Virus record (IMG/VR): IMGVR_UViG_3300038461_000154
Strand: one strand, 5' to 3'
DNA length: 64,000 nt
Source: an uncultured virus (IMG/VR IMGVR_UViG_3300038461_000154)
Lineage: Duplodnaviria > Heunggongvirae > Uroviricota > Caudoviricetes
The stretch's first letter is position 1. Each line of letters opens with the position of its first letter. Below, piece after piece: positions 1 through 64,000 of this stretch. A program made the translations under genes and the position numbers. The notes beneath the pieces were generated by a model. That model searched no databases. It was not told where the DNA came from and saw only the letters and a program-made list of their open reading frames with translations.

Positions 1-205
1 TGTATTCTAAAATGTAAGGACAATGATATGGCGGTTCACTTTTAAGATTAACTAGCTGATAAGTCGTACCACCATGACGACCATAACACATGGCAAATCC
101 AAGCGACCATATTTTGTTAAACTCTTTACAAGTGTCAGCTTTGCCATGGCCGTTACGTTGGCCAATTTCTGAACAGCACTTGAGACAAACATCGTACATT
201 AGCAT
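1..205 (-). CDS. MLNK/CPYxLE Cys-rich family member (runs off window edge)
   Basis: Manual translation MLMYDVCLKC...W..G..MC...PPYHCPYILEY. Confidence 0.8.
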   Translation of the reverse strand, partial: MLMYDVCLKCCSEIGQRNGHGKADTCKEFNKIWSLGFAMCYGRHGGTTYQLVNLKSEPPYHCPYILEY

Positions 206-480
206 GGTTCTATCACTTCCTCATCAGAAACGATGTGTTCTAAGGCATAAGGACAAGTTTCTGGTGGTGAAGATTCCGTAGACCAAAGAAAAGCATGGCC
301 ACGATGTTCACATTTGAAGATACCTGCATCAAAGTTGTGAATAAAATCTTCCACTGCCTCTTTGTAATTATGCACGACTAAAGATTTTGGAGCATTTACT
401 TCTGCCCATCCGAGAATAAATTCGTGGTGTTCATGATACCACTTTTCAAAACACTTCACACAAACGTCTCTATTCAACAT
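199..480 (-). CDS. MLNK/CPYxLE Cys-rich family member
   Basis: MLNRDVCVKC...PPETCPYALEH. Confidence 0.85.
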   Translation of the reverse strand: MLNRDVCVKCFEKWYHEHHEFILGWAEVNAPKSLVVHNYKEAVEDFIHNFDAGIFKCEHRGHAFLWSTESSPPETCPYALEHIVSDEEVIEPC

Positions 481-700
481 TGGTTTCTTCCATCGTGTGT
501 TCGAGCACGTAAGGGCACTTTTCCATATCAGCATGTAATTCCACAATGCCGAAGATACGACTATTGTAGCTCAAGTTCACGGTTGGTGCAAATCCTAAAC
601 ATGGAAGTAGTTCAGCTTTTTTGAACTGCCAAGGATGAGTCAATACAATATCTGTTTGATACGGTTTACAGTATTTAGTGCACACGGATTCAACTGGCAT
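470..700 (-). CDS. MLNK/CPYxLE family member (divergent N-term)
   Basis: VCTKYC...KCPYVLEH. Confidence 0.75.
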   Translation of the reverse strand: MPVESVCTKYCKPYQTDIVLTHPWQFKKAELLPCLGFAPTVNLSYNSRIFGIVELHADMEKCPYVLEHTMEETNVE

Positions 701-902
701 TCTTTTTTGTCCTTGTAAAAATCACTTGTTCAGTATAGTAAGGACAATCAGACGGCACACCCTTGTAATGCCCAATAGCCTTCATCATACAAATCTTGCC
801 CTTGACAAACTTCTGCATTTTACCGTTCTTGATGCTTATACCTATCATGCCTGAAAAGTACAGATGGCATTTGTCACAGACTTCTTTTTTAGGTCTTAGC
901 AT
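690..902 (-). CDS. MLNK/CPYxLE family member
   Basis: KEVCDKC...PSDCPYYTEQ. Confidence 0.8.
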   Translation of the reverse strand: MLRPKKEVCDKCHLYFSGMIGISIKNGKMQKFVKGKICMMKAIGHYKGVPSDCPYYTEQVIFTRTKKNAS

Positions 903-913
903 CGGCTCACCAT

Positions 914-1141
914 TTAGTCATCAACCTTTTCTTTCAAAACCATTTGTTCCACACAGTACCAACAGTTTTCAGGAATGACGTACAGACTTTGTGCTATCGG
1001 AAGATGTGGAGGACAAATGCAAAACCTTCTCACATCCCAAACCATATCCCAATGTTCATAGGCATTCGGGAACTTACCATCAGGATGCTGTTGCCACATG
1101 TAACTTTGGAAGCAGTGTTTGCAAAGCGTCTTGCTTAACAT
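914..1141 (-). CDS. MLNK/CPYxLE family member
   Basis: MLSKTLCKHC...PENCWYCVEQ. Confidence 0.8.
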   Translation of the reverse strand: MLSKTLCKHCFQSYMWQQHPDGKFPNAYEHWDMVWDVRRFCICPPHLPIAQSLYVIPENCWYCVEQMVLKEKVDD

Positions 1142-1347
1142 TGAATCACTTCTTTTTGTGCAAGAGTATGTTCTAAAAGAAAAGGGCAACAGTCTGGCGG
1201 TGGTTCATCAATACGCACAATTCCATATCCACCATGACCACGATACGGGCAATGAACCACCCCATTTCTTACCCAAAAATTTTCATCACCATCCGTCCAT
1301 GTGTCACACTTCTTGCAAAGCTCTTTTACCAACCGAAAGCTACCCAT
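1135..1347 (-). CDS. MLNK/CPYxLE family member
   Basis: KELCKKC...PPPDCCPFLLEH. Confidence 0.8.
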   Translation of the reverse strand: MGSFRLVKELCKKCDTWTDGDENFWVRNGVVHCPYRGHGGYGIVRIDEPPPDCCPFLLEHTLAQKEVIQC

Positions 1348-1348
1348 A

Positions 1349-1639
1349 TCACTTTTCCCAATCCTGCAATGGCGTATCTTTGTTCATTCCAAACCAATTG
1401 AACTCTCTGGCTTCTTTCATAAGCTTCTTTGCGCGTCCTAATTCATCTTGCGTACCTATCTTATTTACTGTGATTCTTTCACCTTCTGTTGTGGCAGATA
1501 CGATATTGTCAAATCTGATTTTGTGCTCATAGATGCCAACCAACGTCATGTAGCCTTGTTCTGGCTTAAACGTCCAAAGAACTCCCTTGAATGTCTTCCC
1601 GTCTTTCGTCTTCACTGTCGTCACATGCATAAGCGCCAT
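1349..1639 (-). CDS. Hypothetical protein, possible Sm/LSm-like fold
   Basis: VKTKDGKTFKGVL...MTL resembles the Sm1 motif; RBS AAGGA; promoter motif upstream. Confidence 0.45.
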   Translation of the reverse strand: MALMHVTTVKTKDGKTFKGVLWTFKPEQGYMTLVGIYEHKIRFDNIVSATTEGERITVNKIGTQDELGRAKKLMKEAREFNWFGMNKDTPLQDWEK

Positions 1640-1654
1640 TCCTTTCCACCACTA

Positions 1655-3252: not shown

Positions 3253-3465
3253 ATGTTGAAGTTTGAAGTATGCCTACGCTGTCACATGACTCACAAATGC
3301 ACTCCTGAGTATATTTATGCTTACCCTAATCCGCAGGAACCATTTTTTCGTGCAGTATGGGAGAGAAATAAACAATGCGCTTGCCCAATCAGCGGTGAAG
3401 ATTTATCAATAACAGGCGAGCCTCCAAAAAATTGTCTCTTTATTTTGGAGCAAGTCATATGCTAA
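3253..3465 (+). CDS. MLNK/CPYxLE family member
   Basis: MLKFEVCLRC...PPKNCLFILEQ. Confidence 0.85.
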   Translation: MLKFEVCLRCHMTHKCTPEYIYAYPNPQEPFFRAVWERNKQCACPISGEDLSITGEPPKNCLFILEQVIC

Positions 3466-3665
3466 AATTTGAAGTCTGTCTACGATGTTATAGAAAAGCA
3501 TTGAGAACAGACCAACGCTTCTTCATACCCCCAGAAGAATACTTCGTCAGATTATGGGAAGATGAAAAAAGATGTCATTGCCCTTATTGTGCTTTGTGGG
3601 GTTCTAATAAAGTAGACATAAAACCTCCAAAAGAATGTCCTTATGTTTTGGAGCAAATTGTATGA
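3459..3665 (+). CDS. MLNK/CPYxLE family member
   Basis: MLKFEVCLRC...PPKECPYVLEQ. Confidence 0.85.
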   Translation: MLKFEVCLRCYRKALRTDQRFFIPPEEYFVRLWEDEKRCHCPYCALWGSNKVDIKPPKECPYVLEQIV

Positions 3666-3874
3666 TGAATCACAATATCTGTCTACGCTGTTATCTTGCT
3701 ACTGGTGGAAAAAGTCTTGGTGTTAAACCGCCCAAAGAAGTTTTAGCATTTGAAAAGTTGTGGAAAGAAAGACAGCTTTGCTTATGTTTTACGAGTATCG
3801 GTCTTCCTTCTGTTAAAAGTAGACCACCAAAAAATTGCCCTTACATCCTAGAACAGATGGTGAGCCAATGCTAA
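3662..3874 (+). CDS. MLNK/CPYxLE family member
   Basis: MMNHNICLRC...PPKNCPYILEQ. Confidence 0.85.
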   Translation: MMNHNICLRCYLATGGKSLGVKPPKEVLAFEKLWKERQLCLCFTSIGLPSVKSRPPKNCPYILEQMVSQC

Positions 3875-4074
3875 ACAAAGAGATTTGCTTAAAGTGCCAT
3901 TTTTCTCGCCATAAGGTTTGGAGCGATAAAAATACAAAGGTATATTTCAATCCGCGTTGGGAAGCTGGTTGGGTCATGTGTCCGTCGCCAGAAGGTGGTT
4001 ACTCAGTAGAGATAGCAGAACCACCACCGCCAATTTGTCCTTATGTTTTGGAACATGCGGTGAACCAATGCTAA
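3868..4074 (+). CDS. MLNK/CPYxLE family member
   Basis: MLNKEICLKC...PPPICPYVLEH. Confidence 0.85.
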   Translation: MLNKEICLKCHFSRHKVWSDKNTKVYFNPRWEAGWVMCPSPEGGYSVEIAEPPPPICPYVLEHAVNQC

Positions 4075-4304
4075 ACTACAAAATTTGCCATAGATGCTGG
4101 CATGAATTCGTATACGGGATAGCGAGCGATAAAGAATTGGCAAAGCAAGCCAAACGTCTTAAGGCTAATTGGTCAAAAGGTAAATGCTTTTGCATACACC
4201 CTGATACCGGCCCCTACTCTGCCGCTTTTATAGAAGTAGAAAGTCAACCACCAAAAAATTGTCCTTACGTTTTGGAACACATGGTAACGGCCAATGCTAA
4301 ATAG
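4068..4304 (+). CDS. MLNK/CPYxLE family member
   Basis: MLNYKICHRC...PPKNCPYVLEH. Confidence 0.85.
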   Translation: MLNYKICHRCWHEFVYGIASDKELAKQAKRLKANWSKGKCFCIHPDTGPYSAAFIEVESQPPKNCPYVLEHMVTANAK

Positions 4305-4536
4305 AACACTTTGTTGGAAGTGCTTTTTCCAGTTCCACCATTCAACTCACGAAGATGGATGGCATTACATAACACTCACAGAAGATAAGACATTTGAGAA
4401 ATATTTTAAGGACGGCAAATGTGCTATCTACCCGTTCAATATACCATTGAAAGCAAGAGGCAATCCACCAGAAGATTGTCCTTTTCTCTTAGAACAAACG
4501 CTAGTTTCTGACGATATAAGAGAGGAGAGGATATAA
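4294..4536 (+). CDS. MLNK/CPYxLE family member
   Basis: MLNRTLCWKC...PPEDCPFLLEQ. Confidence 0.85.
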   Translation: MLNRTLCWKCFFQFHHSTHEDGWHYITLTEDKTFEKYFKDGKCAIYPFNIPLKARGNPPEDCPFLLEQTLVSDDIREERI

Positions 4537-4538
4537 CA

Positions 4539-4787
4539 ATGCTGAGTAGTGCGATTTGTCTACGGTGTGTAATAGAACATCTTAAAAAAGAAGATGCAGA
4601 ACTATGTCTCAAGAAGAAAGGCAAGGAAATTAGCATTACAGAGTATATAGGAATGCTCAAACAGAAAAACAAGAGACACGAAACCTGTCCTCTTGTCTCT
4701 ATTTTGAGTTTCGAACATGGGGCACTTGATAATGGTGTTCCAGAAGACTGTGATTACAGGCTTGAACAAATGGTACAGCAACAATGA
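4539..4787 (+). CDS. MLNK/CPYxLE family member
   Basis: MLSSAICLRC...PEDCDYRLEQ. Confidence 0.85.
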   Translation: MLSSAICLRCVIEHLKKEDAELCLKKKGKEISITEYIGMLKQKNKRHETCPLVSILSFEHGALDNGVPEDCDYRLEQMVQQQ

Positions 4788-5008
4788 TTACTAATAAAAA
4801 AGCGTGTCTAAGATGCCGATTAACCAGACTGAAAGAGTTTGGTTTTTCTGAAGACGATTTAAAGATTATGCAAAACGGCTTTAACCATGATTGGAAATAT
4901 GGGCATGTTTTCTGTTACAAATGGCTTGGACGTGTTTCAATTAAAAGATGCCCACCTGATGGTTGCCCGTACATACTTGAGCAGATGGTGAGCCAAGATG
5001 TTAAATAA
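4784..5008 (+). CDS. MLNK/CPYxLE family member
   Basis: NKKACLRC...PPDGCPYILEQ. Confidence 0.85.
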   Translation: MITNKKACLRCRLTRLKEFGFSEDDLKIMQNGFNHDWKYGHVFCYKWLGRVSIKRCPPDGCPYILEQMVSQDVK

Positions 5009-5243
5009 AAAAATATGCCGACGCTGTTACAAAGACCACAACCGTACATGGAATGGCATAAGCCCCTTTACAGGCAAATCTTTCAAAAAGGAATGGACTT
5101 TGGGAAGAATTTGGTGCCCTATTTACAGTACCCGTTTTAACATAACGCTTTCCACTGAAACAAAAGACATCATTTTTGATTGCCCTTACCTATTAGAACA
5201 AACGGTTAATACAGAAATACTTGATAAAAAGCCCACCGCTTGA
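4998..5243 (+). CDS. MLNK/CPYxLE family member
   Basis: MLNKKICRRC...DCPYLLEQ. Confidence 0.85.
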   Translation: MLNKKICRRCYKDHNRTWNGISPFTGKSFKKEWTLGRIWCPIYSTRFNITLSTETKDIIFDCPYLLEQTVNTEILDKKPTA

Positions 5244-7539: not shown

Positions 7540-7789
7540 TCCGATGATTTCGTTCAAGACTACAAAGACGATAAGGGAATACTTGGCGGAAAACGCTTCA
7601 AGTGTGATTGCTACGCTAGAAGAAGTAGCTAGAATTCCTCATCAGAGCGTTCCGATTAAGTACCGCAAGGCCATTTCTTTTGCGCGGAATACTCTTTACA
7701 ACAGTCAAGATTCGGAATTGATGCACTTCGTCCATGATTGTGACGCTTTTGAGAGGAACAACAGAAAGAAAGTTGCCAAAAAGAAATGA
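7532..7789 (+). CDS. Hypothetical protein
   Basis: RBS AAGGAG before ATG 7532. Confidence 0.65.
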   Translation: MDSPMISFKTTKTIREYLAENASSVIATLEEVARIPHQSVPIKYRKAISFARNTLYNSQDSELMHFVHDCDAFERNNRKKVAKKK

Positions 7790-8004
7790 AGCCTAATCTG
7801 AAGATTTGTAAGAAGTGTGAGAGGGTATTATACACGCCGAAAGACCCTACTACGTTTTTCTGGTGTCAAATTGGCAACTTTCTTCATCCATTGCAATTCA
7901 GAAAAGACATGACGTTTGAAGTACCTCATACGTATATAATAACTGTGCCCGAAGAATGTGAGTTTTACATGGAGCACATGGTTTCTCAGAAGGCAACAGT
8001 ATGA
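7786..8004 (+). CDS. MLNK/CPYxLE family member
   Basis: LKICKKC...PEECEFYMEH. Confidence 0.8.
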   Translation: MKPNLKICKKCERVLYTPKDPTTFFWCQIGNFLHPLQFRKDMTFEVPHTYIITVPEECEFYMEHMVSQKATV

Positions 8005-8207
8005 GAAGAGTTAAGGCGATTTGTGAAATGTGTGCTGCTAAAGCTAGAATGCGTTTGGCAAAATTAATACCGATGCCTACTGAACAATTCGACATTGCCA
8101 TGTTACAAATTAAATGCAATACGGGGTTTGAAGAAATTGATGAAGAAGTTTGTAACTATACTTTAGAATTGGCTGTCAATCAAAGGATAGCCAATGAGAA
8201 GAGTTAA
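8001..8207 (+). CDS. MLNK/CPYxLE family member (divergent)
   Basis: KAICEMC...VCNYTLEL; close to 8194 gene. Confidence 0.7.
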   Translation: MRRVKAICEMCAAKARMRLAKLIPMPTEQFDIAMLQIKCNTGFEEIDEEVCNYTLELAVNQRIANEKS

Positions 8208-8430
8208 AAAGATTTGTATTCAGTGTGCAGATAAAGCCAAAAAGGTTTTAGCGCGACCAATGCCAAGGCCCAAAGACAAAGATGTTGGATTTTCTATAAA
8301 AGAATTAGTAGAAGTGATGAATAGAACGACTTTTGCCTCAAGGTGTCTCAGATGCAGTCAAGGCAAAGATAAAATCCCCGAAGATTGTCCTTACGTAACA
8401 GAGTTGACCATTCATCAAAATAGGAGATAA
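8194..8430 (+). CDS. MLNK/CPYxLE family member
   Basis: KKICIQC...PEDCPYVTEL. Confidence 0.8.
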   Translation: MRRVKKICIQCADKAKKVLARPMPRPKDKDVGFSIKELVEVMNRTTFASRCLRCSQGKDKIPEDCPYVTELTIHQNRR

Positions 8431-9973: not shown

Positions 9974-10276
9974 ATGTACGTGGTTCTTCAAGTTTCTATG
10001 AATGTCAGTCCTGTCTATATTTCATACGGGCCGATGTCAGAACAAGAGGCCGCAGTTTTGGAATTTGAAGCAAAGCGACGGCAGGAAGAATCTGACCCGG
10101 AACATAGGGTTTGGAGTTGGAACACAAAAGATAAACCAGCTAGTGACTACATAATTCATTCAAAAGAAGAACTCGTTGAAGAGTTGAAAGCCGAACAAAA
10201 AGAAAACGAAACAAAGTCTAATCGGCTCAAAGATGTTCTAAAGACGTTAAACCTTCGCGGATACTGTGTGTTCTAA
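9974..10276 (+). CDS. Hypothetical protein
   Basis: RBS GAGG; converges on minus-strand cluster. Confidence 0.65.
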   Translation: MYVVLQVSMNVSPVYISYGPMSEQEAAVLEFEAKRRQEESDPEHRVWSWNTKDKPASDYIIHSKEELVEELKAEQKENETKSNRLKDVLKTLNLRGYCVF

Positions 10277-10477
10277 GACGTATGGGCAATCATCGGCAAT
10301 TTCCATGTGGTAAAACCATTCGCTTACATATCCATTTTCTATTGTGCTTTCCCCTGCTATATATTGAAAATACTTTTTCTTCCCGCAAATCCAATACGTT
10401 AACCCCACATTTGGCTTATCTATTTCAAGATGATGACAGCGAATACAGATTTGTCTTTCAGCTATAACGTTTCTCAT
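10247..10477 (-). CDS. MLNK/CPYxLE family member
   Basis: QICIRC...DDCPYVLEH. Confidence 0.8.
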   Translation of the reverse strand: MRNVIAERQICIRCHHLEIDKPNVGLTYWICGKKKYFQYIAGESTIENGYVSEWFYHMEIADDCPYVLEHTVSAKV

Positions 10478-10481: not shown

Positions 10482-10787
10482 TTAATCCCAAAAGTCTAAC
10501 CTAATCCAGCAATATCGGTAGTAATAATAGACAACCAAATCAAAAAAATTAGGCTTATAGACTGTTTGTTCTAAGAGATAACAGCAGTTCTCTGGTGGTG
10601 TTTCGGTTACTGATAAGCTTTGGTAAAAATCGTTTGACAGATAGCAGGGGCATTTACCTTCGGCCCACATATCGTAGAAGAATCTGAATTCTGTTTTCCG
10701 GTCAAGATACATGCCTGGACCATACCGTGCATCTTCTTCTTCAATGTGGCGAAGGTAACAGCGTTTACAAAGCTTCTTGTTTAACAT
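10482..10787 (-). CDS. MLNK/CPYxLE family member
   Basis: MLNKKLCKRC...PPENCCYLLEQ, aromatic tail. Confidence 0.85.
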   Translation of the reverse strand: MLNKKLCKRCYLRHIEEEDARYGPGMYLDRKTEFRFFYDMWAEGKCPCYLSNDFYQSLSVTETPPENCCYLLEQTVYKPNFFDLVVYYYYRYCWIRLDFWD

Positions 10788-11040
10788 ATTCTTGTCCCTG
10801 TAGCATTTGTTCAAGCAAGTACGGACATTTCATAGGCGGTTCGTTTTGAATAGGGAGTGCATCACAATGAGTAGTTGGTTCACCATTAACAGAACTAAAA
10901 AAAGAACATGCGCATATCCCCTTCAACCAATTTTTATTGAAATTTGTTGTCCAATGTTCTTCCCAACTATTATGAAATTTTGGGTATTGCGCGATACTCG
11001 TTTTCATAAAACATTTGAAGCATATTTTTTTATTTAACAT
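10765..11040 (-). CDS. MLNK/CPYxLE family member
   Basis: MLNKKICFKC...PPMKCPYLLEQ. Confidence 0.85.
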   Translation of the reverse strand: MLNKKICFKCFMKTSIAQYPKFHNSWEEHWTTNFNKNWLKGICACSFFSSVNGEPTTHCDALPIQNEPPMKCPYLLEQMLQGQEYVKQEAL

Positions 11041-11285
11041 ATTTTGTCCCCCTGTAGCATTCGTTCAAGAATATAAGGGCATTCCTTTGGTGGCTCCTCA
11101 TAAATATCTATCAAAACCGGCTGTAGCTTCGTGTCGTTTATAAGGTCACAAGTACATTTGCCTTCATACCATCGTCTCTCAAAAGATTCAACATGCGTCT
11201 TTGCAAAGCTCTTATCAAATATATTACCAAACCACTCTTGGCGAGATTTCATAAAGCATTTCTGGCACAATTTTTTGTTTAACAT
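11034..11285 (-). CDS. MLNK/CPYxLE family member
   Basis: MLNKKLCQKC...PPKECPYILER. Confidence 0.85.
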   Translation of the reverse strand: MLNKKLCQKCFMKSRQEWFGNIFDKSFAKTHVESFERRWYEGKCTCDLINDTKLQPVLIDIYEEPPKECPYILERMLQGDKIC

Positions 11286-11302: not shown

Positions 11303-11527
11303 TTATTGTATCGTCTTTTTCTTCGATTCTTCTAGTGTCTGTTCAAGAATGAAAGGACATTTTACAGGAACGGCATCTGCAAATGCTTCTTCTAGTGTTT
11401 GTTTAAAACACATGATTCTTCTCTCAATAGGTTCTGGATTACCAAGAATGCGAGTCTCCGTTCCCCAATGATGAAGACACTTGCTACAGATATCCGGTTG
11501 GCGTTTCAATATCTCAATCATCGGCAT
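11303..11527 (-). CDS. MLNK/CPYxLE family member
   Basis: DICSKC...PVKCPFILEQ. Confidence 0.8.
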   Translation of the reverse strand: MPMIEILKRQPDICSKCLHHWGTETRILGNPEPIERRIMCFKQTLEEAFADAVPVKCPFILEQTLEESKKKTIQ

Positions 11528-11741
11528 TCACCATTTGTTCCATAAGATACTGGCATCCTTCTGGAATTTTACCATCAATGCTAATTCGTTTTCCCGCCAC
11601 ATGACAATGTAGCACCCGGTCATTCCAATTGATTTGAAACAAAATGTTCCCAAGACCACTGCTAGTGCCGTCGTTCTTTCGGTGCGGCCTATTGTTTTCA
11701 TGCCTTTTTCGGCATTTAGAACAAATCTGTTTCACCAACAT
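11514..11741 (-). CDS. MLNK/CPYxLE family member
   Basis: MLVKQICSKC...PEGCQYLMEQ. Confidence 0.85.
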   Translation of the reverse strand: MLVKQICSKCRKRHENNRPHRKNDGTSSGLGNILFQINWNDRVLHCHVAGKRISIDGKIPEGCQYLMEQMVNADD

Positions 11742-20911: not shown

Positions 20912-21142
20912 CTAAAGGCAGATGACGTGTTCAAGTTCGTAAGGACAATACTTTGGCGGTGAACCAAGAATAGAAATGTGTCCATGATTTACGCAATAAA
21001 CTTGTTGTCTCTCGTTCCAATATCGCTCGTCTTCTTTGCCCCACCAATCTTCTGGATTTTCCATAACAATTTCACCAACTTCATCGTTAATACCACGAAA
21101 GTTGGCAATCGTGCATCGCTTGCATACTTCTTTACTCAGCAT
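20912..21142 (-). CDS. MLNK/CPYxLE family member
   Basis: MLSKEVCKRC...PPKYCPYELEH. Confidence 0.85.
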   Translation of the reverse strand: MLSKEVCKRCTIANFRGINDEVGEIVMENPEDWWGKEDERYWNERQQVYCVNHGHISILGSPPKYCPYELEHVICL

Positions 21143-21160: not shown

Positions 21161-21391
21161 CTATTTCAGATTCACCGTTTGTTCAAGGAAGTATGGACAA
21201 TCTCTTGGTATACGATTGTCACATATAACCTCTGTCAAATAGGCATTGTTTGGTTGCGAGAAACAACACGCCGGGAGCTTAGTTTTTTTCCAAGTGTCGT
21301 CAAAGTAATGTTCAGCTTCACGCTTTATGATGAAGCGCCTTTGTGTTTCCAAAAAGCACTTACGACAAATTTTACGGTTTAGCACAAGCAT
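21161..21391 (-). CDS. MLNK/CPYxLE family member
   Basis: LNRKICRKC...PRDCPYFLEQ. Confidence 0.85.
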   Translation of the reverse strand: MLVLNRKICRKCFLETQRRFIIKREAEHYFDDTWKKTKLPACCFSQPNNAYLTEVICDNRIPRDCPYFLEQTVNLK

Positions 21392-21801: not shown

Positions 21802-22068
21802 TTAAGCATCTACCGTATGTTCTGTAATGTACGGGCATTCTTCCGGTACTTGAAAATCTTCATTGTAATCAGCAGTGCCATCTAAACCTAAATCGTCATT
21901 CAGAACCCCAATAGTAATGATGGTTTTGTGGTAACTGTTTTTTATATCTTCGACTGTATCCCATTCCCCGTATGCTTTGCGGCAAAAGAAAATTACTTGT
22001 ACAACCCCTTCGCTTGTAAATTTCTGAAAGTCTAGTTCTTTACACTTTTTGCATACACTCTGTTTCAT
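21802..22068 (-). CDS. MLNK/CPYxLE family member
   Basis: SVCKKC...PEECPYITEH. Confidence 0.8.
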   Translation of the reverse strand: MKQSVCKKCKELDFQKFTSEGVVQVIFFCRKAYGEWDTVEDIKNSYHKTIITIGVLNDDLGLDGTADYNEDFQVPEECPYITEHTVDA

Positions 22069-22321
22069 TACTCTGCCCCTCTAATACCTGCTCAAGTATA
22101 TACGGACACCTTGACATTATACGCTCATTTCCTTTCTCTGTTTTTCTTTTGCTCGTCCAACTGTAACTTCCGTCAATTTCCATTGTGGCTTCTAATACCG
22201 GGCACCATATCGTGGCATATTTTTTCCAATTACTGTTAAACAATTCCTCAGAAAAACTACCCCGTATCTCATCGAAGTGTCTTTTGTTGCACTCTAAACA
22301 TATCTCATATAGCAGTTTCAT
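22040..22321 (-). CDS. MLNK/CPYxLE family member
   Basis: YEICLEC...RCPYILEQ. Confidence 0.85.
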   Translation of the reverse strand: MKLLYEICLECNKRHFDEIRGSFSEELFNSNWKKYATIWCPVLEATMEIDGSYSWTSKRKTEKGNERIMSRCPYILEQVLEGQSNETECMQKV

Positions 22322-22584
22322 TGGCTCACCGTATGCTCCAAAAAGTAAGGGCATTTCTCTGGTATCGGGTCAAAAATGTTTAGATTCCCGTTTATTACAG
22401 AAAACGCCTTGTTTTTGGTGTTGCATCTTCTTGAAATCCAAAGATGTTGCAAACAAGCAGCACACCAAATCAAGTTACATTCCCAACGAGCTTCAAAGGC
22501 ATTATCAGCATTCAAAGACAATGAGAGATACCCTTCTTGCTCCAAACGAAGCCAACACTTCCGGCATATCTCTTTGTTAAGCAT
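22318..22584 (-). CDS. MLNK/CPYxLE family member
   Basis: MLNKEICRKC...PEKCPYFLEH. Confidence 0.85.
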   Translation of the reverse strand: MLNKEICRKCWLRLEQEGYLSLSLNADNAFEARWECNLIWCAACLQHLWISRRCNTKNKAFSVINGNLNIFDPIPEKCPYFLEHTVSQ

Positions 22585-22811
22585 GTGACACCATATGTTC
22601 CAAAAGATAGGGGCATGTCTCTGGCGGTGGTTCTTCTATTGGCCGAAGCATAAACAAATGTCCATCCACCATCGGGAAATGCTCACAATGCACTTGCCCA
22701 TCTCTCCAATCAAGGTCAAACATATACACAGAAAATTCACGATTTTTCCCTTTTCTAAAATAGTATTCCATGTAACACTTGAAACAAAGTTCTTTATTCT
22801 TTATTCTTCAT
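22577..22811 (-). pseudogene. Family member frameshifted by a 7-bp tandem duplication
   Basis: ATG AAG AATAAAG AATAAAG AA CTT TGT; removing one copy restores MKNKELCFKC...PPETCPYLLEH. Confidence 0.8.
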
Positions 22812-23101
22812 TCGTCGTCTTCTTGTAATATCGTCTTCTTACAATGAGGGCATTTTACATCAATGCTCTTTGGAAGTACAGCTATAGTTTTTTGAGCCTT
22901 CCGCGTCAGCAATGTGTTATTCGCACCCAAGATAGACTTCTTGCCTAAACCAACAATGCCACAATCTAGCTCGCCAGCCATCTTCCACAATATCTTGCGC
23001 TGCTTATCGCTATTGCCTTCTTTCAAAGCACACCCAAACAAATACGCGGCTACGTATTTGCACATGGGGATAATTTCTTCGATTGTTTGACTGTTCTTCA
23101 C
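22808..23101 (-). CDS. Hypothetical protein with C-terminal CPHC
   Basis: GTGA overlap start, RBS AAGGAG. Confidence 0.6.
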   Translation of the reverse strand: MKNSQTIEEIIPMCKYVAAYLFGCALKEGNSDKQRKILWKMAGELDCGIVGLGKKSILGANNTLLTRKAQKTIAVLPKSIDVKCPHCKKTILQEDDE

Positions 23102-23367
23102 GTTGTAGCTCCTTCTAAAGTGTGTTCCAAAACGTAAGGGCACTGGCGTATCAATTTTTCGTTTTGTGCATCGTCAAATGTCAACAGAGTGCTTTGCGCA
23201 TTCTCTCTATTTTTCATCCAAGCTTGTTGTTTCTCGCACCACAAAATACCAAACTCTTTCCAATCATAGCGGAACACTTCTGTATATTGTTTAATACCAC
23301 CACAGTCATATTTGTGGCGTGTTCGTAGGCAACATCGTAAACAGATATTTTTATTTAGATAAGTCAT
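23098..23367 (-). CDS. MLNK/CPYxLE family member
   Basis: LNKNICLRC...QCPYVLEH. Confidence 0.85.
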   Translation of the reverse strand: MTYLNKNICLRCCLRTRHKYDCGGIKQYTEVFRYDWKEFGILWCEKQQAWMKNRENAQSTLLTFDDAQNEKLIRQCPYVLEHTLEGATT

Positions 23368-23600
23368 TGCCCTATCACATGCTCCAAAAAATAAGGGCAA
23401 TCTTTTGTCAAATCTTCATCACTCTTGTAGTAGAAATATCTCCACCTCTTTAGCGTTTCACAATATACCTCACCCCGCGTCCAATTTTTATCAAAATACA
23501 TCCTGAATGATGATTCGCTTGCTTCATAGAATTCATATTTATTAACTCTTGCGGTTTTTACAACGCATCTCCAACAAAGCTCTTTATTAAGCACCAGCAT
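23364..23600 (-). CDS. MLNK/CPYxLE family member
   Basis: LNKELCWRC...DCPYFLEH. Confidence 0.85.
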   Translation of the reverse strand: MLVLNKELCWRCVVKTARVNKYEFYEASESSFRMYFDKNWTRGEVYCETLKRWRYFYYKSDEDLTKDCPYFLEHVIGQ

Positions 23601-23889
23601 TGACTGTATGCTCCACAATGTACGGACACTCGCCAAGCAACTTCTCATTTACTGTATCGTCAAAAAGACCACTTCCTGCGTCATAAAAAATGTCACCCGG
23701 CTTTGTTTTTCGTTCTCTCACCTTTCCTTTTATCCGTATCCATCTCTCTCTAGCCTCACACCACATCTGGCCATGAGTTTCCCAATCCTCATTAAATATC
23801 TTCACATATGTTGCCCGTTCAACTTCCATATGTTGGGGGGTAGCTCTTACCTTCTGGCAACAGTGTAAGCAAATCTCTTTGTTTAACAT
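23587..23889 (-). CDS. MLNK/CPYxLE family member
   Basis: MLNKEICLHC...ECPYIVEH. Confidence 0.85.
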   Translation of the reverse strand: MLNKEICLHCCQKVRATPQHMEVERATYVKIFNEDWETHGQMWCEARERWIRIKGKVRERKTKPGDIFYDAGSGLFDDTVNEKLLGECPYIVEHTVNAGA

Positions 23890-24146
23890 GACACAGTATG
23901 CTCCAACAAATACGGGCATTTGTTAAGCATTGATAAATAAACTTGTCGTACTGATTCATCTGCTTTTGTATGCCCCTTCTTTTCAAGATGTTTGAAAGCT
24001 ATGTGCACTTCCCATCTCGTGCACCAAACTGTTCCTTTTTCCCAATCTTCATCGAAGTCTTTTTCTAAATCAAAATATAATCGGAGACTTCTGTTCCGTT
24101 TCTCATTCTTTTTTTGGCATTGTCTACATACCTCTTTGTTAAGCAT
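23883..24146 (-). CDS. MLNK/CPYxLE family member
   Basis: MLNKEVCRQC...KCPYLLEH. Confidence 0.85.
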   Translation of the reverse strand: MLNKEVCRQCQKKNEKRNRSLRLYFDLEKDFDEDWEKGTVWCTRWEVHIAFKHLEKKGHTKADESVRQVYLSMLNKCPYLLEHTVSC

Positions 24147-42337: not shown

Positions 42338-42553
42338 CTACCACGTTTTACCACAAAGGCTGCATTCAAAATAACTCTCTGAAGAATCACCAGCCGGGTC
42401 AACATGTAATGTCACTTTGGATTTTGGATGCTTACATTCGTCACGTAAATCGTACAATTTCCTCTCCAATTTTTCATAGTCGTTATCATACTTGCCTAAG
42501 AGCTTCCGCATAGACTTTTTAATTGCTTTGGCTTTCTTCTCTACATTGCTCAT
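42338..42553 (-). CDS. Hypothetical protein (CxH...CxxC)
   Basis: ATGA overlap; CKHP...CSLCG. Confidence 0.65.
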   Translation of the reverse strand: MSNVEKKAKAIKKSMRKLLGKYDNDYEKLERKLYDLRDECKHPKSKVTLHVDPAGDSSESYFECSLCGKTW

Positions 42554-42738
42554 AATGTTTGCTCCAAAATGAAAGGACAATTGGCCGGTGGTTGACTCGT
42601 TATCTTCCTTGCCTTATATTCATTGATTGAAACACAAACCACATAACCAAAATTCCAACATACCTCAAAAGTATCCGGCGTCACTTGATTACCTATTTTA
42701 CAACACTTCTTGCATAACCGTTTGCGTAGCTTTTTCAT
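42550..42738 (-). CDS. MLNK/CPYxLE family member
   Basis: KRLCKKC...PPANCPFILEQ. Confidence 0.85.
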   Translation of the reverse strand: MKKLRKRLCKKCCKIGNQVTPDTFEVCWNFGYVVCVSINEYKARKITSQPPANCPFILEQTL

Positions 42739-43060: not shown

Positions 43061-43297
43061 ATGTTAAACAGCGAAATATGTTTGCGATGTGGTGTGGAAG
43101 CCGCTAAAGAACGTCTTAGAACGCACCAAGAATCTTTTGTACTTAAATCATGGATAGATGAACAACAAAAATCTGTTACCGATTATGAATCATTGTGGTG
43201 TCCAGCAATAAAAAAGTTCATCCATTTAAGAACTAAACCACCGGAGAACTGCACGTATATTCTTGAACAAACCTTTCAACACAAAGTCATGGCTTAA
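43061..43297 (+). CDS. MLNK/CPYxLE family member (isolated, + strand)
   Basis: MLNSEICLRC...PPENCTYILEQ; RBS GGAGG. Confidence 0.85.
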   Translation: MLNSEICLRCGVEAAKERLRTHQESFVLKSWIDEQQKSVTDYESLWCPAIKKFIHLRTKPPENCTYILEQTFQHKVMA

Positions 43298-43544
43298 CTA
43301 AATTGTTCACCAAATGTTCCATGTAATACGGGCATTCATCAAAGTTCCTTTTGAAAATGTCTATGCCCGCCAACGCGAATCTTTCTCGTTTTTCTTCCAA
43401 GTCTATTTCCATGCAATAGTATTCTTCGCTATCCCAAACCAACAAAGCACAATGCATGTGCGGAACAATTTTACCATCAATACGCTTTTCTCTACGAAAG
43501 CTGTAATGCTGACACTTCTGGCAAATACCTTTGAAGACAATCAT
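43287..43544 (-). CDS. MLNK/CPYxLE family member
   Basis: KGICQKC...DECPYYMEH. Confidence 0.8.
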   Translation of the reverse strand: MIVFKGICQKCQHYSFRREKRIDGKIVPHMHCALLVWDSEEYYCMEIDLEEKRERFALAGIDIFKRNFDECPYYMEHLVNNLVKP

Positions 43545-48613: not shown

Positions 48614-48871
48614 TTAGGTAGATTTTAAGTTTACAGCATGTTCCACATCATAAGGGCAGCATTCAGGCGGATTTCTGTAGCGGCTTGTATATTCATCTCT
48701 CATATTATCATCAAAGAGCGTTTTTGTCATAACCCAAATATTGTAACACTCTTGAATCTTCTTAGCTTTATAAATACACCATATTGTGCCTTGTTTATCC
48801 CATTTATGTTGGTCTATGGTAAGGCCATTTATCTCATAGCATTTCTTACAAACTATAAGGGAAAGAGGCAT
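48614..48871 (-). CDS. MLNK/CPYxLE family member
   Basis: LIVCKKC...PPECCPYDVEH. Confidence 0.85.
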   Translation of the reverse strand: MPLSLIVCKKCYEINGLTIDQHKWDKQGTIWCIYKAKKIQECYNIWVMTKTLFDDNMRDEYTSRYRNPPECCPYDVEHAVNLKST

Positions 48872-49186
48872 TTAATCACACCCTTGGTTAACGAGTTGTT
48901 CCAAAGGATATTGGCAATGCTTTGGTATTTCTACTTGACGAATGTTTTTTGGCATCCATCTTGTTTCATTGTGTATTATCTTCGTATCAAGAACTTTTCT
49001 TCCAAAGTTCTGATACGGGCATGGCACAAAGTGTGGGAAAATAGCAATCTCAAGCCATTCATCCAATTCGGTGTCAAATCTTTTTGCTGCATTCTGATGC
49101 CACTGATACCACGCAGACGACTTACAATGTTCGCGGATACACTTTTTACAAATAGGAATGTTAAACTTAAATGGTTGCTTTAGCAT
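48872..49186 (-). CDS. MLNK/CPYxLE family member
   Basis: PICKKC...PKHCQYPLEQ. Confidence 0.8.
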   Translation of the reverse strand: MLKQPFKFNIPICKKCIREHCKSSAWYQWHQNAAKRFDTELDEWLEIAIFPHFVPCPYQNFGRKVLDTKIIHNETRWMPKNIRQVEIPKHCQYPLEQLVNQGCD

Positions 49187-49584
49187 TCTTGATGCACCAA
49201 CTGTTCTAACATATACTCACAATGAACCGGAATTGAATCTCCATCTATTTGCCGTTGTGACATTGATGACACACTCACCCTATGCCAAGCGTCTAGCTCG
49301 TATTCTACCAAACTACCAAATGTAATGTACGGACAAGGATAAACACTTTTTTCCCACCATCGCTGTAACCAAATCTCAAAAGTGCAGTTAGAATTGAACT
49401 GCAACTTGATGGTTTCTTTTCTGTCGGTTGGAAAACGAGAGCCATAATCTGTCAAACAAGGATTAATTAAATAAGGATTATTTGGGCTAAGAGAAAACCA
49501 ACCTTTCATAGATAAGGTATCACTTGCCAACTTCTGGCTTAAATGTTCATGCAAACATTTTTTACAAATTACAAGATTTATCAT
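49180..49584 (-). CDS. MLNK/CPYxLE family member (long insert)
   Basis: MINLVICKKC...PVHCEYMLEQ. Confidence 0.8.
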   Translation of the reverse strand: MINLVICKKCLHEHLSQKLASDTLSMKGWFSLSPNNPYLINPCLTDYGSRFPTDRKETIKLQFNSNCTFEIWLQRWWEKSVYPCPYITFGSLVEYELDAWHRVSVSSMSQRQIDGDSIPVHCEYMLEQLVHQEC

Positions 49585-59372: not shown

Positions 59373-59388
59373 ACCACAGGCTTATACA

Positions 59389-60387: not shown

Positions 60388-60398
60388 ATTCAGATTTT

Positions 60399-60704: not shown

Positions 60705-60737
60705 AGCAATTCCTACGTTGCATTTTTATGAATCTTG

Positions 60738-61274: not shown

Positions 61275-61277
61275 CTT

Positions 61278-61838: not shown

Positions 61839-61990
61839 AGTACGCTTCCTCCATTGCGGAGAGAGTCGCACTTTCTTTTTTGACAAAGAAAGGTATTATC
61901 GAAACCTACAGATTTCAATACTCTCCGATAGTCTGCGGAGGTGCAGTATAAAGTATTATATACCAACAATAAAAATTTCTAAAATAATTT

Positions 61991-62521
61991 CTAACGATGC
62001 CCGCCATGCCCACCAAAACTGTGTCCAGAACCACCGCGTGAACCATAACCATAACTAGAGAATCCAAAGCCTACAGAGAAGCTTGGGTAGTAATAAGGAC
62101 GATAGCAAGGATAGGAATAGTAAGGATAAGCAGAGGGATAGTCAGTATAGACATAACGTACTGTCGGCGCTTCTACAATTTCTACCTGTTGTATGGGTTC
62201 TTGTACCACTCGTACTGGCTGTGCTCTAATCGGCTCTGCTTTTGCCCTGATTACAATTGGTTGACGTTCTGCAATGACTTCATGCGCAACCGGCTTACAA
62301 TGCTTCAAGATAGCCACAACGACTTCCTTTGACACCTTTGCATCTTTGAGTTTGAGAATGTCATCAGCAGTCAATGTAACAGGCTCAGATGTTTCCACAA
62401 AGGCAAGCATCACTTCATCACCAACACCTTTTTGAGTCAATGTCACAACATCTTCTACCGTTGCAGCCTGGATGAAGCCACTACCAATAAGCAATACAGC
62501 AGAAATAAACCATTTCCACAT
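61991..62521 (-). CDS. Exported protein with DV..L...GV.DEV repeats and Tyr/Gly-rich tail
   Basis: Signal peptide; VEDVVTLTQKGVGDEVM / ADDILKLKDAKVSKEVV; RBS AAGGAGG. Confidence 0.75.
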   Translation of the reverse strand: MWKWFISAVLLIGSGFIQAATVEDVVTLTQKGVGDEVMLAFVETSEPVTLTADDILKLKDAKVSKEVVVAILKHCKPVAHEVIAERQPIVIRAKAEPIRAQPVRVVQEPIQQVEIVEAPTVRYVYTDYPSAYPYYSYPCYRPYYYPSFSVGFGFSSYGYGSRGGSGHSFGGHGGHR

Positions 62522-62577
62522 GGTTAATCCTCCTTGTCAAGCGTCCATATTATTGACGGCTATTCAAAAACTATTAT

Positions 62578-62841
62578 TCAAGTTGGTCTATTGAAATACT
62601 TCGGCAAGGCTTCTTCTGGACATTGCTTGATGAATTCCAACGCCTCTGGACTATTAAGTACAGCAGTAATGGCACCAATCAGCATCGGAGAGCCTTTGGT
62701 TTTGCAGTGCCATTGTTCGCCTTTTGGCCCAATACCTATCGTAGCCAACGTACAGGCGAAACTACGGCGCTGTAGCTCTGCCATTAGCTCGTCTATGCTG
62801 GCTTCCTGAATTGGAGCCATGGTTACTTGACACTTTTTCAT
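62578..62841 (-). CDS. Hypothetical protein
   Basis: RBS GGGAG. Confidence 0.6.
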   Translation of the reverse strand: MKKCQVTMAPIQEASIDELMAELQRRSFACTLATIGIGPKGEQWHCKTKGSPMLIGAITAVLNSPEALEFIKQCPEEALPKYFNRPT

Positions 62842-62922
62842 CGGTTTCTCCCAATAAGCCTACTGCCATTGTACAGGCTTGCGGCCACTTTTTGACAATT
62901 TTTATAAATCTTATAAGTCTTT

Positions 62923-63306
62923 TTACTGTTTGATGTTACGATAATGTTTTTTACATAAACCCTTGGCGTGGAACTGTCCCTCACAGCCTTCAATTGAGCA
63001 AAACCTTTCATTAGGGTTACGTTTAAACACATTTTTGTAATAATGTTGCTTGCAATACCCTTTCGCGTGAGGCTCTTCGTTACATCCATCTACTTGGCAT
63101 TTTCTTATTTCTTCGGGGGGAATGTCTTCGTGCAGCACATGTTCTAGGCAATATGGGCAAGCATCTGGCGGGTCATGTGTAATGAAAACACTGCATAATA
63201 CTTCAGGACATTCAATGACACCAAGTTTCCAAAGACGTTTCCTAATCTGACTCCACTTTCTTCCTTGAACTTCAATACATTTTCGACAGACTTTTTTGTT
63301 CAACAT
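62923..63306 (-). CDS. MLNK/CPYxLE domain fused to two CxxxGC...AKGxCxxHY zinc fingers
   Basis: MLNKKVCRKC...PPDACPYCLEH then CQVDGC..AKGYCKQHY, CSIEGC..AKGLCKKHY. Confidence 0.85.
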   Translation of the reverse strand: MLNKKVCRKCIEVQGRKWSQIRKRLWKLGVIECPEVLCSVFITHDPPDACPYCLEHVLHEDIPPEEIRKCQVDGCNEEPHAKGYCKQHYYKNVFKRNPNERFCSIEGCEGQFHAKGLCKKHYRNIKQ

Positions 63307-63782
63307 TTGAAATCTGATTCATCATCTTTTGACAAGACGTGCTCTAGTTCATAAGGACAACTTTCTGGCGGATTGTCCTTCCACACAAACAGGATTTTAC
63401 ACGTCTTGTGGCAGAAAATACACTTCTTTTTGTAAACTTCTTGCACATCTAAATGAACTTCTGTTGATTGCTTACAGACCGCACAAACCTTGGCATTGAT
63501 TTTTCTTGGGAACTGCGTGTAAGATAATTGTTCAACAAGCCAACCAAAGTTCTCAAAGAATATCTCGTAGTCTGGAATAGCGAAGCTATAGTTGCCACTG
63601 GTACTAGTAGTTACTGTGCCTATCGGAATAGAAGTGGACCCGATGCCATAGAGAGACTGGTTGGCATACACAGGGTAGATGTTAGAATTGTTGGGAGAGC
63701 TATACGTGATAGTGCCCGAATTGTTGGTGCTGGTTGTAATTGTATTCCAATTTGTATTAGGTGAAAGTGGGAGAGCCGCCAT
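63300..63782 (-). CDS. MLNK/CPYxLE domain with S/T/N-rich N-terminal extension
   Basis: INAKVCAVC...PPESCPYELEH. Confidence 0.8.
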   Translation of the reverse strand: MAALPLSPNTNWNTITTSTNNSGTITYSSPNNSNIYPVYANQSLYGIGSTSIPIGTVTTSTSGNYSFAIPDYEIFFENFGWLVEQLSYTQFPRKINAKVCAVCKQSTEVHLDVQEVYKKKCIFCHKTCKILFVWKDNPPESCPYELEHVLSKDDESDFKC

Positions 63783-63784
63783 AA

Positions 63785-64000
63785 TCAATGTTTCCTTGTA
63801 ACCAATTGTTCTATAAGATAAGGACACCATTTCGGTGGTTCTGCTTTGACTTCTATAAAACCAAAAATAGAAGTCAATAGGTTGTAATATCTCTCATCTG
63901 GTATTTTATTATGGCTAAGTAATTGACGCGGACAGGATATATAACCTTCTTTCCACGTCATATCAGTGTCATTGTTCCACGGTAATAATGATTGTCTATA
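63785..64000 (-). CDS. MLNK/CPYxLE family member (5' end outside window)
   Basis: ...EPPKWCPYLIEQLVTRKH*. Confidence 0.75.
   Translation of the reverse strand, partial: YRQSLLPWNNDTDMTWKEGYISCPRQLLSHNKIPDERYYNLLTSIFGFIEVKAEPPKWCPYLIEQLVTRKH

Follow-up and report, generated by a model that had tools for sequence, protein, structure and literature searches.

A family of about 81 small four-cysteine proteins arrayed in 64 kb of an uncultured tailed phage

Lineage-specific expansion of small Cys-rich proteins is already known in very large phages. The closest described case is Bacillus phage G, whose roughly 35 zinc-ribbon copies were called 'unprecedented' in a 2021 jumbo-phage survey (Iyer, Anantharaman, Krishnan, Burroughs and Aravind 2021, PMC7824862). 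We analysed 64,000 nucleotides (nt) of the uncultured virus record IMGVR_UViG_3300038461_000154 in IMG/VR (this whole stretch is called the window), in which 80 small open reading frames (ORFs) and a probable 81st encode one family of proteins with four conserved Cys. An earlier description made from the letters alone, without database searches (the sequence-only reading), had called an expansion of this size exceptional for a phage, and the comparison with that survey agrees. The copy number is two to three times that of phage G (80 in 64 kb, and at least 110 in a related phage). The marks that distinguish the family are this two- to threefold copy number, the absence of any earlier description or detectable structural relative, and the long-term conservation of every copy tested.

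The two expansions are alike in that many small, Cys-rich and presumably zinc-binding paralogues of unknown function occur in a very large phage, and a diversified set has been proposed for both. They differ in family, since a 51-member profile found one match (E 0.024) in the 497,513-bp phage G record; in Cys pattern, which is CxxC...C...C here and two knuckles there; in the helix-rich fold predicted here; and in the overlapping, probably coupled arrays. As in classical zinc ribbons and treble clefs, a small domain would here be stabilised by four Cys, with one putative ligand pair arranged as CxxC. In the classical zinc ribbon, however, CxxC and CPxC each sit on a beta-hairpin, giving two knuckled hairpins, whereas here a single CxxC is predicted in helix 1, the two remaining presumed ligands are lone Cys, at spacings of about 30 and 20 residues, and the predicted order is helix-helix-hairpin-helix.

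Two further systems resemble the arrays in organisation. Large eukaryotic viruses carry multigene families, such as the ankyrin/BTB proteins of poxviruses and multigene families (MGF) 110 and 360 of African swine fever virus (ASFV), which are thought to counter host defences and set host range. These are likewise large paralogue sets in variable genome regions with lineage-specific expansion, but they belong to eukaryotic viruses and have unrelated folds and larger proteins, so that the analogy is a functional one only. To our knowledge, paralogue expansions of this scale are known from giant eukaryotic viruses and not from phages. Multi-copy precursors of ribosomally synthesised and post-translationally modified peptides (RiPPs), such as the prochlorosins and those with NHLP/Nif11 leaders, are also encoded by dozens of small genes in tandem that combine constant with hypervariable parts. 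Here, in contrast, the constant parts span the full length of a predicted folded domain, and no conserved maturase was found.

Copy number, conserved residues and predicted fold

The search space comprised all 1,188 stop-to-stop ORFs of at least 30 amino acids (aa) in the window. A regular-expression scan for two motifs flagged 67 open frames, 16 of which held both, and a profile hidden Markov model (HMM) built from these 16 converged at 80 ORFs with E < 1e-3 (76, 80, 80 and 80 in successive iterations). A relaxed search among the remaining ORFs added the probable 81st member (8001-8204, plus strand; E 0.0058). At the same E < 1e-3, none of 5,940 shuffled and none of 1,188 reversed control ORFs matched. 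With start codons assigned, the family covered 19,812 nt, or 31.0% of the window. The minus strand held 67 of the 80 copies and the plus strand 13; 71 started with ATG, and lengths ranged from 48 to 134 aa (median about 80, typically 65-100 aa). Family ORFs crossed both edges of the window (2-205 and 63788-64000, both minus). The highest pairwise identity among copies was 42.3% over at least 50 aa, and DNA-level similarity (60-80% identity) was limited to motif-encoding stretches of 40-60 nt. These results agree with the sequence-only reading, which had counted about 81 paralogues on both strands, covering roughly a third of the window, running off both its edges and containing no near-identical pair.

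The motifs given in that reading were also recovered, as the consensus MLNKxxCxxC...FxxxWxxGxxxC...PPxxCPYxLEHxV, in an alignment of 51 members. C7, C10, C57 and E62 were invariant in this alignment, and W31 and C38 were at least 90% conserved. In the profile, information content was highest at the Cys, Met1, Tyr63 and Glu66, and was also high at W34 and the CPYxLEH motif; the four Cys are the most conserved positions in alignment and profile. Basic positions were conserved beside the CxxC (K4, and K/R at profile column 9). All four Cys fell at the expected profile columns in 63 of the 80 copies. Twelve further copies missed only the column-41 Cys; one of them, inspected by eye, has a Cys a few residues off, and the twelve may reflect an alignment offset. 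Five copies lacked the N-terminal CxxC as called, being truncated, cut by the window edge or given a start after the CxxC, so that CxxC is kept in at least 75 of 80, and the Cys (C61) and Glu (E66) of the third motif were invariant in 80 of 80. Defective copies were few (473-700, 29180-29338, 22580-22771 and 34848-35234).

Across the 63 four-Cys copies, the spacing from C10 to C41 varied from 18 to 73 residues and that from C41 to C61 from 10 to 45. Length variation thus falls in two segments, and the four Cys lie on four separate elements, which is the arrangement that a single cross-bracing metal site would require. From the Cys pattern we infer that the four Cys bind one metal ion, most likely zinc. 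A homodimer prediction with zinc scored 0.08 (mark 0.42), which speaks neither for nor against binding. The copies were enriched in Cys, Trp, His, Pro and Tyr. Their isoelectric points (pI) had a median of 7.6, with 24% of copies below 6 and 42% above 8, and net charge ran from -6 to +7; this broad range indicates that no uniformly basic nucleic-acid-binding surface is common to the copies.

We ran AlphaFold2 with the 51-member alignment as input. The 68-aa copy at 3868-4071 was modelled with a mean predicted local distance difference test score (pLDDT) of 90.9 and a predicted template modelling score (pTM) of 0.76. Its model comprises a helix at 4-14 that holds C7 and C10, a helix at 20-32 with the F/W motif, strands at 35-38 (ending in C38) and 45-48, a Pro-rich loop with C57, and a final helix at 60-67 (YxLEHxV). 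The 100-aa copy at 23590-23889 (pLDDT 76) showed the same elements in the same order, with a 25-residue low-confidence insert after the hairpin followed by an extra helix. Both modelled members are thus predicted to share one core, a helix-helix-hairpin-helix alpha/beta mini-domain, in line with one common fold. Structure searches with the predicted fold gave a best E of 0.99 for Foldseek against the PDB, a best E of 0.15 for Foldseek against BFVD, and a best Z of 3.1, with none at Z of at least 5, for VIA-align against 48,161 representative chains. The absence of a structural relative suggests a new fold and falls short of proof, because small domains score low in such searches.

Sequence libraries gave a similar picture, and the family, which the sequence-only reading had not recognised, went unmatched in Pfam, PHROGs, NCBIfam and PADLOC. 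At E <= 1, no Pfam family matched above 2 of the 100 members scanned. The best member reached 17.8 bits (E 0.0035) against DUF3258 (PF11646), whose gathering cut-off is 25 and which matched 2 of the 100 at E <= 1; in full-text literature listings, DUF3258 appears in Klebsiella type VI secretion system papers alone. Among the same 100 members no zinc family of Pfam recurred, no helix-turn-helix or known DNA-binding family was detected, and none matched HNH (PF01844), the HNH matches of the window being other ORFs (46071-46436 and others). In PHROGs none of 51 members matched at E <= 0.001, two families matching one member each at E 0.004-0.006; NCBIfam and PADLOC matched 0 of 51, and PDB sequences gave no match at E <= 1. 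The nearest clusters in the ESM Atlas were unnamed and viral (scores 0.86-0.88). Full-text literature searches found no description of the four-Cys family.

Spread, expression and selection of the arrays

In a HMMER pass over 1.84 billion representatives of metagenome protein clusters, 2,487 proteins matched at E <= 1e-3, 274 of them at E <= 1e-10; most were 65-100 aa long and some had two domains. Wider loci were searched with a degenerate DNA pattern for PPxxCPYxLE(H/Q), which found three IMG/VR records. The first (G001; 48.9 kb, CheckV completeness 14%) held 83 profile matches, all on one strand; the second (G002; 253,102 bp, 75%) held 6, near both contig ends; and the third (G003; 50.8 kb, 15%) held 7. 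By estimate, these completeness values imply genomes of about 340 kb. G001 was identical over 3,236 bp to metagenome contig Ga0180430_10000006 (338,312 bp), which carries at least 110 unique family ORFs within the roughly 57 kb examined; in a related phage, the stop-to-stop frames of family ORFs covered about half of a 49-kb stretch. The copies of G002 lie at 2039-2248 and 246682-251045, at both ends of a linear contig, and its assembly may have broken inside an array. The profile matched one or more times in 66 of the 78 metagenome loci fetched by the pattern, the densest having 36 matches in 10 kb.

Among 185,579 species genomes, the pattern gave 36 loci, two of them real: a two-domain ORF in a metagenome-assembled genome (MAG) titled Victivallis and a contig end in a MAG titled Lentisphaera. 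The family is virus-restricted and almost absent from cellular genomes. The Victivallis-titled locus (L024, 2982-3452, minus) is one ORF with two family domains that adjoins an excisionase-like HTH_17 gene and a Sel1-repeat gene, and is probably an integrated element. One of 301 genomes sampled from that phylum matched, and it was a MAG already found by the pattern. The closest TnpB among 401 genomes was 40% identical; Lentisphaerota are only a lead as to the host. In G003, an ORF (L004, 9821-10669, plus) runs from a family domain into an in-frame Methyltransf_24 domain (E 3e-16) with no intervening stop, and an internal Met at the domain boundary could start the enzyme separately. A word-index search for longer proteins, itself weak evidence, found no longer fused forms. 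The two-domain ORFs, the Methyltransf_24 fusion and two fused forms in the window indicate that the domain behaves like a portable module. In one of the latter, the extension (62926-63120, minus, of the copy 62926-63306) comprises two repeats of a C..GC......AKG.C..HY-type Cys/His motif that are kept in the orthologue.

Consecutive copies on the same strand form 73 junctions, of which 39 overlap and 16 more are 0-18 nt apart. The commonest overlaps were 7 nt (12 junctions), 11 nt (9), 8 nt (6) and 4 nt (6). In the 7-nt overlap, ATGYTAA, the downstream start is joined to the upstream TAA stop, and the upstream stop usually falls within codons 2-4 of the next gene (for example at the junctions 3868/4071, 24142/24375 and 30367/30579). 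This partly explains the conserved Met-Leu-Asn/Lys, which is not a junction effect alone because it persists where genes do not overlap. Purines were enriched at -8 to -12 and further upstream, and the upstream LEHxV codons (e.g. TTGGAGCA..GGTGAG) supply a purine-rich, Shine-Dalgarno-like sequence for the next gene; protein motif and translation signal are intertwined at the junctions. Sigma-70-like promoters were not in excess in the 19-kb main array (41, compared with 52.9 ± 8.3 in shuffles). Together with the overlaps, this makes long polycistronic transcripts and coupled translation likely.

In one metatranscriptome library, five contigs matched the array at 99-100% identity with word depths of 4, 14, 38, 40 and 75 and nothing between them. 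Such patchy depth suits RNA better than carried-over DNA and is a hint of expression; the 23 of 30 array bins lacking RNA-library contigs do not show that those parts are silent. Among terminator-like hairpins of the array region, the strongest (29454-29479, plus; 9 pairs, 7 of them G-C, with the T-run on the plus strand) sits in a 150-nt gap between minus-strand copies.

The stretches at 28.9-31.4, 39.0-40.1 and 62.9-64.0 kb of the window were each syntenic with a short metagenome contig (L074, L120 and L094, respectively). These contigs yielded 11 orthologue pairs that were 59-91% identical, compared with at most 42% between paralogues. We calculated the ratio of nonsynonymous to synonymous rates (dN/dS) over these pairs by the Nei-Gojobori method with bootstrap 95% intervals. 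The conserved anchor columns (204 codons, 92% aa identity) had a dN/dS of 0.06 (0.03-0.11), and all other, variable codons (544 codons, 73% aa identity) had a dN/dS of 0.17 (0.12-0.23); these values are approximate because dS was about 0.9 in both classes, near saturation. Purifying selection acts on anchors and variable parts alike, and neutral decay, which the sequence-only reading had named as grounds for rejection, is contradicted. Its description of the interiors as hypervariable holds between paralogues and fails between orthologues, whose interiors are conserved and show no sign of ongoing diversification. The repertoire is fixed and maintained, subject neither to decay nor to targeted hypermutation.

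Two candidate sources of variation were rejected. A diversity-generating retroelement target does not fit, as no reverse transcriptase was found among the Pfam-scanned window ORFs, no template repeats were found, and the variable parts are kept between orthologues. Recent gene conversion does not fit the DNA repeats among copies, which are merely 60-80% identical over 40-60 nt; the TnpB copies are the only long DNA repeats in the window. The best paralogue lay within two array positions for 19 of 80 copies (4.8% expected), a nearest-neighbour excess that is the footprint of tandem duplication. Of the window copies, 79% had their best match in their own genome, as had 94% of the copies in the other well-sampled phage, which indicates that much of the expansion took place separately in each lineage. 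At 23596-23628, contigs of two DNA runs from different studies (X4 and X6) depart from the window at the same two places into the same foreign continuation, which suggests strain-level cassette replacement in the array.

What the proteins may do

We favour, with a probability of about 45%, a set of specific binders: a repertoire on a zinc-stapled scaffold that would serve host takeover or counter-defence. A single metal, most likely zinc, would be held by the CxxC in the first turns of helix 1, the Cys ending strand 1 and the Cys before the last helix (CPYxLEH). This staple would tie the N-terminal to the C-terminal part, with the segments between helices 1 and 2 and after the hairpin free to vary in length and sequence. 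Tandem duplication within each phage lineage would have built arrays of 80 to more than 110 copies, and their transcription in long units with coupled translation would make many different copies together. Each copy, presumably a small, cytoplasmic and monomeric protein, would have a target of its own, in most cases a host protein and in some perhaps a nucleic acid. Restriction to viruses, location among accessory genes, lineage-wise expansion, and differing parts that are nevertheless conserved make a binder repertoire the most likely function. The sequence-only reading had also proposed a diversified binder repertoire; old, distinct copies under purifying selection and length variation confined to two segments fit that proposal.

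Several points weigh against specific binders. The function is argued by analogy and exclusion, and we know of no precedent for the co-expression of 80-110 different inhibitors in equal amounts. The Cys pattern from which the metal is read would also suit iron, an iron-sulphur site or disulfides, the RNA-library contigs could be carried-over DNA, and the selection estimates come from 11 pairs drawn from three short contigs with dS near saturation. In addition, K4, the K/R at column 9 and the member fused to Cys/His fingers would also suit nucleic-acid binding. A sharper version, in which more than 100 co-expressed zinc-stapled versions in a clade of ~340-kb phages would form a germline-encoded counter-immune repertoire, each tuned to a different host defence or housekeeping protein, is possible and distinctly more tentative.

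The main rival, unlikely in our judgement and the best surviving of the alternatives, is that these are nucleic-acid-binding zinc proteins, such as transcription factors, nucleoid or packaging proteins, or RNA binders. Specific transcription factors or structural DNA-binding proteins were proposed for the phage G expansion in the same survey (PMC7824862). The basic residues flanking the CxxC point the same way, as do the copies with pI above 8, the member with two extra Cys/His fingers and the relative fused to a methyltransferase domain. Against this, pI spans acidic to basic values across the copies, no DNA-binding family was recognised in the members scanned, the fold search gave no match to DNA-binding zinc domains (best Z 3.1, which is not decisive for a small domain), and the phage G genome has no relative of the family beyond the single weak match. 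Moreover, 80-110 regulators would lie far above the apparent need of a ~340-kb genome, an argument that weighs on a general role and not on individual members.

It is improbable that the copies are adaptors, in which a conserved face made of the N-terminus and the CPYxLEH helix would dock on a shared hub (a host protease or phage enzyme) and the variable segments would recruit substrates. The invariance of E66 and near-invariance of H/Q67 exceed the needs of a hydrophobic core, and the methyltransferase fusion indicates that the module can be coupled to an enzyme. However, no non-family gene was common to the window arrays and those of other phages in the DNA examined, so no phage-encoded hub is evident, and the conserved residues are explicable by the metal site, core packing and gene-junction signals. 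The related suggestion of the sequence-only reading, that the constant termini form a docking surface, is weakened in the same way: the termini look like structural core, with a predicted zinc site linking the N- and C-terminal helices, and are in part gene-junction signals.

Less probable still are internal virion proteins, packaged and injected to act before phage gene expression. T-even phages have polymorphic internal proteins, and many accessory proteins are packaged by large phages. The conserved N-terminus might act as a targeting signal, and the invariant [ILV]-L-E of the copies resembles the L/I-x-E sites cut by the T4 prohead protease. That motif, however, lies within a confidently predicted helix of a folded domain rather than in an exposed linker, the structural CxxC is part of the conserved N-terminus, and the arrays are embedded among accessory genes (radical SAM, phosphoribosyltransferase, methylase, HNH and TnpB) and lie outside the putative structural block at 50-62 kb.

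RiPP precursors, with a leader and a hypervariable core matured by the radical SAM enzyme at 8433-9410, are disfavoured to the point of being very hard to credit. Many tandem small ORFs with variable interiors and a radical SAM gene abutting one copy recall prochlorosin-type systems, which have dozens of precursors; yet conservation is not confined to a leader and extends over both ends and the middle, the models confidently predict globular proteins, and a single generic radical SAM gene, below peptide-maturase cut-offs and lacking a homologue in the other arrays examined, would have to serve 80 copies. Weakest of all, non-functional repeated DNA or decaying copies, for which a few truncated or degenerate copies (473-700, 29180-29338) and one with a lost stop (34848-35234) speak, is refuted within the limits of 11 pairs from three contigs by a dN/dS of 0.06-0.17 at dS ~0.9, and further by the retention of CxxC, C61 and E66, the lack of near-identical DNA repeats apart from TnpB, and the presence of the family on many contigs.

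Genomic setting and significance

The coordinates of all copies are given in Table 1. The window has a GC content of about 40%, its coding strand switches near 20 kb, and according to the records of its proteins it is part of a 126,653-bp contig. It carries an N6/N4 DNA methylase, three HNH or endonuclease VII-like genes, a phosphoribosyltransferase, a phosphohydrolase, a metallophosphoesterase and several PHROGs of unknown function; no tRNAs and no Rfam matches were found in it. The element looks phage-like in its PHROG matches, HNH endonucleases and IMG/VR relatives, and its source is a large uncultured tailed phage. Its DNA was found in ten peat-metagenome runs from seven studies, and six of the runs hold at least half of the sampled words (two of the six may be the source). 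Among the 50,697 phage records of INPHARED there was no DNA match for the 50-60 kb stretch, and tblastn against 50,697 phage records gave no match for a family member or for a 530-aa ORF. Two other window proteins matched scattered, unrelated phages and were uninformative for taxonomy, and the non-family window proteins were not found in G001, G002 or G003.

Two IS200/IS605-type TnpB genes (11817-13028 and 37528-38721, both minus; NCBIfam IS200_TnpB, E 7e-131) lie inside or at the edge of arrays and are 80% identical to each other, with 73-84% DNA identity where they were compared; the window showed no TnpA. The radical SAM gene (8433-9410, plus) has a MoaA/SPASM-like core, lies directly 3' of a divergent copy and scored below every NCBIfam cut-off; no homologue was found in the other arrays examined. 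Within the array, a 130-aa ORF (28563-28955, minus) has 31% identical relatives in the array-bearing contigs L104 and L083 and may belong to a second small family that travels with the arrays. The block 50128-62521 holds a DNA methylase, an endonuclease VII/HNH-like gene, two fibronectin-type-III proteins (324 and 505 aa, with weak tail-fibre PHROG matches) and a weak major-head match (61278-61886, E 2e-4), and is possibly the edge of a structural module.

Table 1. Positions of the family copies in the window, with profile HMM E-values (L074, L094 and L120 are the syntenic contigs; identities are at the aa level)
Coordinates	Strand	Length (aa)	E-value	Remarks
2..205	-	68	2.5e-16	runs off left edge
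202..480	-	93	5.9e-18	
473..700	-	76	4.7e-05	degenerate; C-terminal half alone matches (profile 46-71), lacks CxxC
693..902	-	70	3.2e-09	
917..1141	-	75	1.6e-14	
1138..1332	-	65	1.5e-12	TTG start
3253..3462	+	70	1.2e-15	
3459..3662	+	68	1.3e-16	
3662..3871	+	70	2.4e-19	
3868..4071	+	68	5.4e-21	modelled by AlphaFold (pLDDT 90.9)
4068..4301	+	78	8.4e-21	
4294..4533	+	80	2.1e-17	
4539..4784	+	82	3e-13	
4784..5005	+	74	4e-19	
4998..5240	+	81	6e-21	
7786..8001	+	72	7.2e-06	divergent
8001..8204	+	68	0.0058	probable 81st copy, very divergent; relaxed search
8194..8427	+	78	1.8e-08	divergent; immediately 5' of radical SAM gene
10250..10477	-	76	4.5e-10	
10485..10787	-	101	1.2e-21	
10768..11040	-	91	2.1e-21	
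11037..11285	-	83	3.7e-21	
11306..11509	-	68	6.9e-09	TTG start
11517..11741	-	75	3.3e-18	adjoins TnpB
20915..21142	-	76	1.6e-16	
21164..21385	-	74	4e-17	GTG start
21805..22068	-	88	4.9e-12	
22043..22321	-	93	6e-15	overlapped by RNA-library (X10) contig 22000-22479
22321..22584	-	88	3.8e-18	
22580..22771	-		5.2e-20	E-value on ORF 22577-22807; first ATG follows CxxC; CxxC lies upstream in frame but has no usual start codon (start possibly broken)
23101..23367	-	89	1.9e-15	
23367..23594	-	76	1.7e-17	GTG start
23590..23889	-	100	2.8e-17	long member modelled by AlphaFold (same core, insert after hairpin)
23886..24146	-	87	4.8e-19	
24142..24375	-	78	2.6e-19	
24372..24593	-	74	8.4e-17	
24923..25171	-	83	1.6e-16	GTG start
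25164..25424	-	87	2.7e-17	overlapped by RNA-library (X10) contig 25240-25419
25420..25665	-	82	5.1e-20	GTG start
25661..25879	-	73	1.4e-16	
26037..26288	-	84	3.3e-20	
26295..26528	-	78	1.3e-09	
26528..26734	-	69	3.4e-11	
26738..27019	-	94	4.6e-10	
27025..27324	-	100	2.5e-13	
27338..27598	-	87	2.4e-19	
27848..28129	-	94	7.9e-17	
28138..28353	-	72	2e-19	
28346..28576	-	77	2.2e-10	
28951..29187	-	79	7.1e-19	orthologue in L074 (59%)
29180..29338	-	53	1.3e-13	short, lacks N-terminal CxxC; orthologue in L074 (73%)
30367..30579	-	71	7.2e-21	orthologue in L074 (87%)
30572..30754	-	61	2e-09	orthologue in L074
30754..30981	-	76	1.4e-18	orthologue in L074
30956..31195	-	80	4.4e-18	orthologue in L074 (89%)
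31191..31409	-	73	9.4e-21	orthologue in L074
32667..32915	-	83	3.7e-21	
33769..34011	-	81	4e-18	GTG start
34107..34349	-	81	4e-16	
34346..34642	-	99	1.3e-15	length as called; TTG start uncertain
34763..34987	-	75	1.7e-20	
34848..35234	-	129	5.9e-14	long tail reaches 140 nt into next copy in a different frame; stop probably missing
35240..35503	-	88	2.8e-14	
35500..35712	-	71	1.1e-19	
35716..35976	-	87	1.4e-13	
35957..36220	-	88	2.1e-18	
36213..36500	-	96	7.2e-17	
36512..36874	-	121	2.5e-13	long inserts
36864..37163	-	100	3e-11	
37177..37524	-	116	4.9e-13	abuts TnpB
38793..38990	+	66	5.9e-19	
38986..39345	-	120	1.2e-15	orthologue in L120 (77%)
42553..42738	-	62	1.9e-13	
43061..43294	+	78	1e-16	
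43290..43544	-	85	2.4e-12	
48617..48871	-	85	1.4e-08	
48875..49186	-	104	1.4e-12	
49183..49584	-	134	2.1e-14	longest inserts
62926..63306	-		7.3e-16	family domain at about residues 1-60, followed by C-terminal extension of 65 aa that bears two Cys/His motifs (Zf_WRKY19 weak, E 0.0016); orthologue in L094 (81% over 131 aa)
63303..63830	-	176	1.2e-07	short C-terminal family domain (residues 133-189 of open frame) preceded by an unknown region of about 130 aa; orthologue in L094 (76% over 200 aa)
63788..64000	-		1e-11	cut by right edge (5' end outside window); orthologue in L094

If the proteins are specific binders, the arrays would hold a large and so far unexploited collection of phage proteins directed at host targets, with candidate anti-defence factors among them, and their domain, a small natural scaffold with room for two variable segments, would be of interest to protein engineering. 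Should the counter-immune version be true, no larger family of paralogous genes would be known from any phage, and the copies would amount to a natural library built on a binder scaffold of about 65 residues. If the proteins instead bind nucleic acids, they would represent a new class of zinc domain with a built-in comparative series. Either way, the family offers a concrete handle on how very large phages use their 'extra' DNA.

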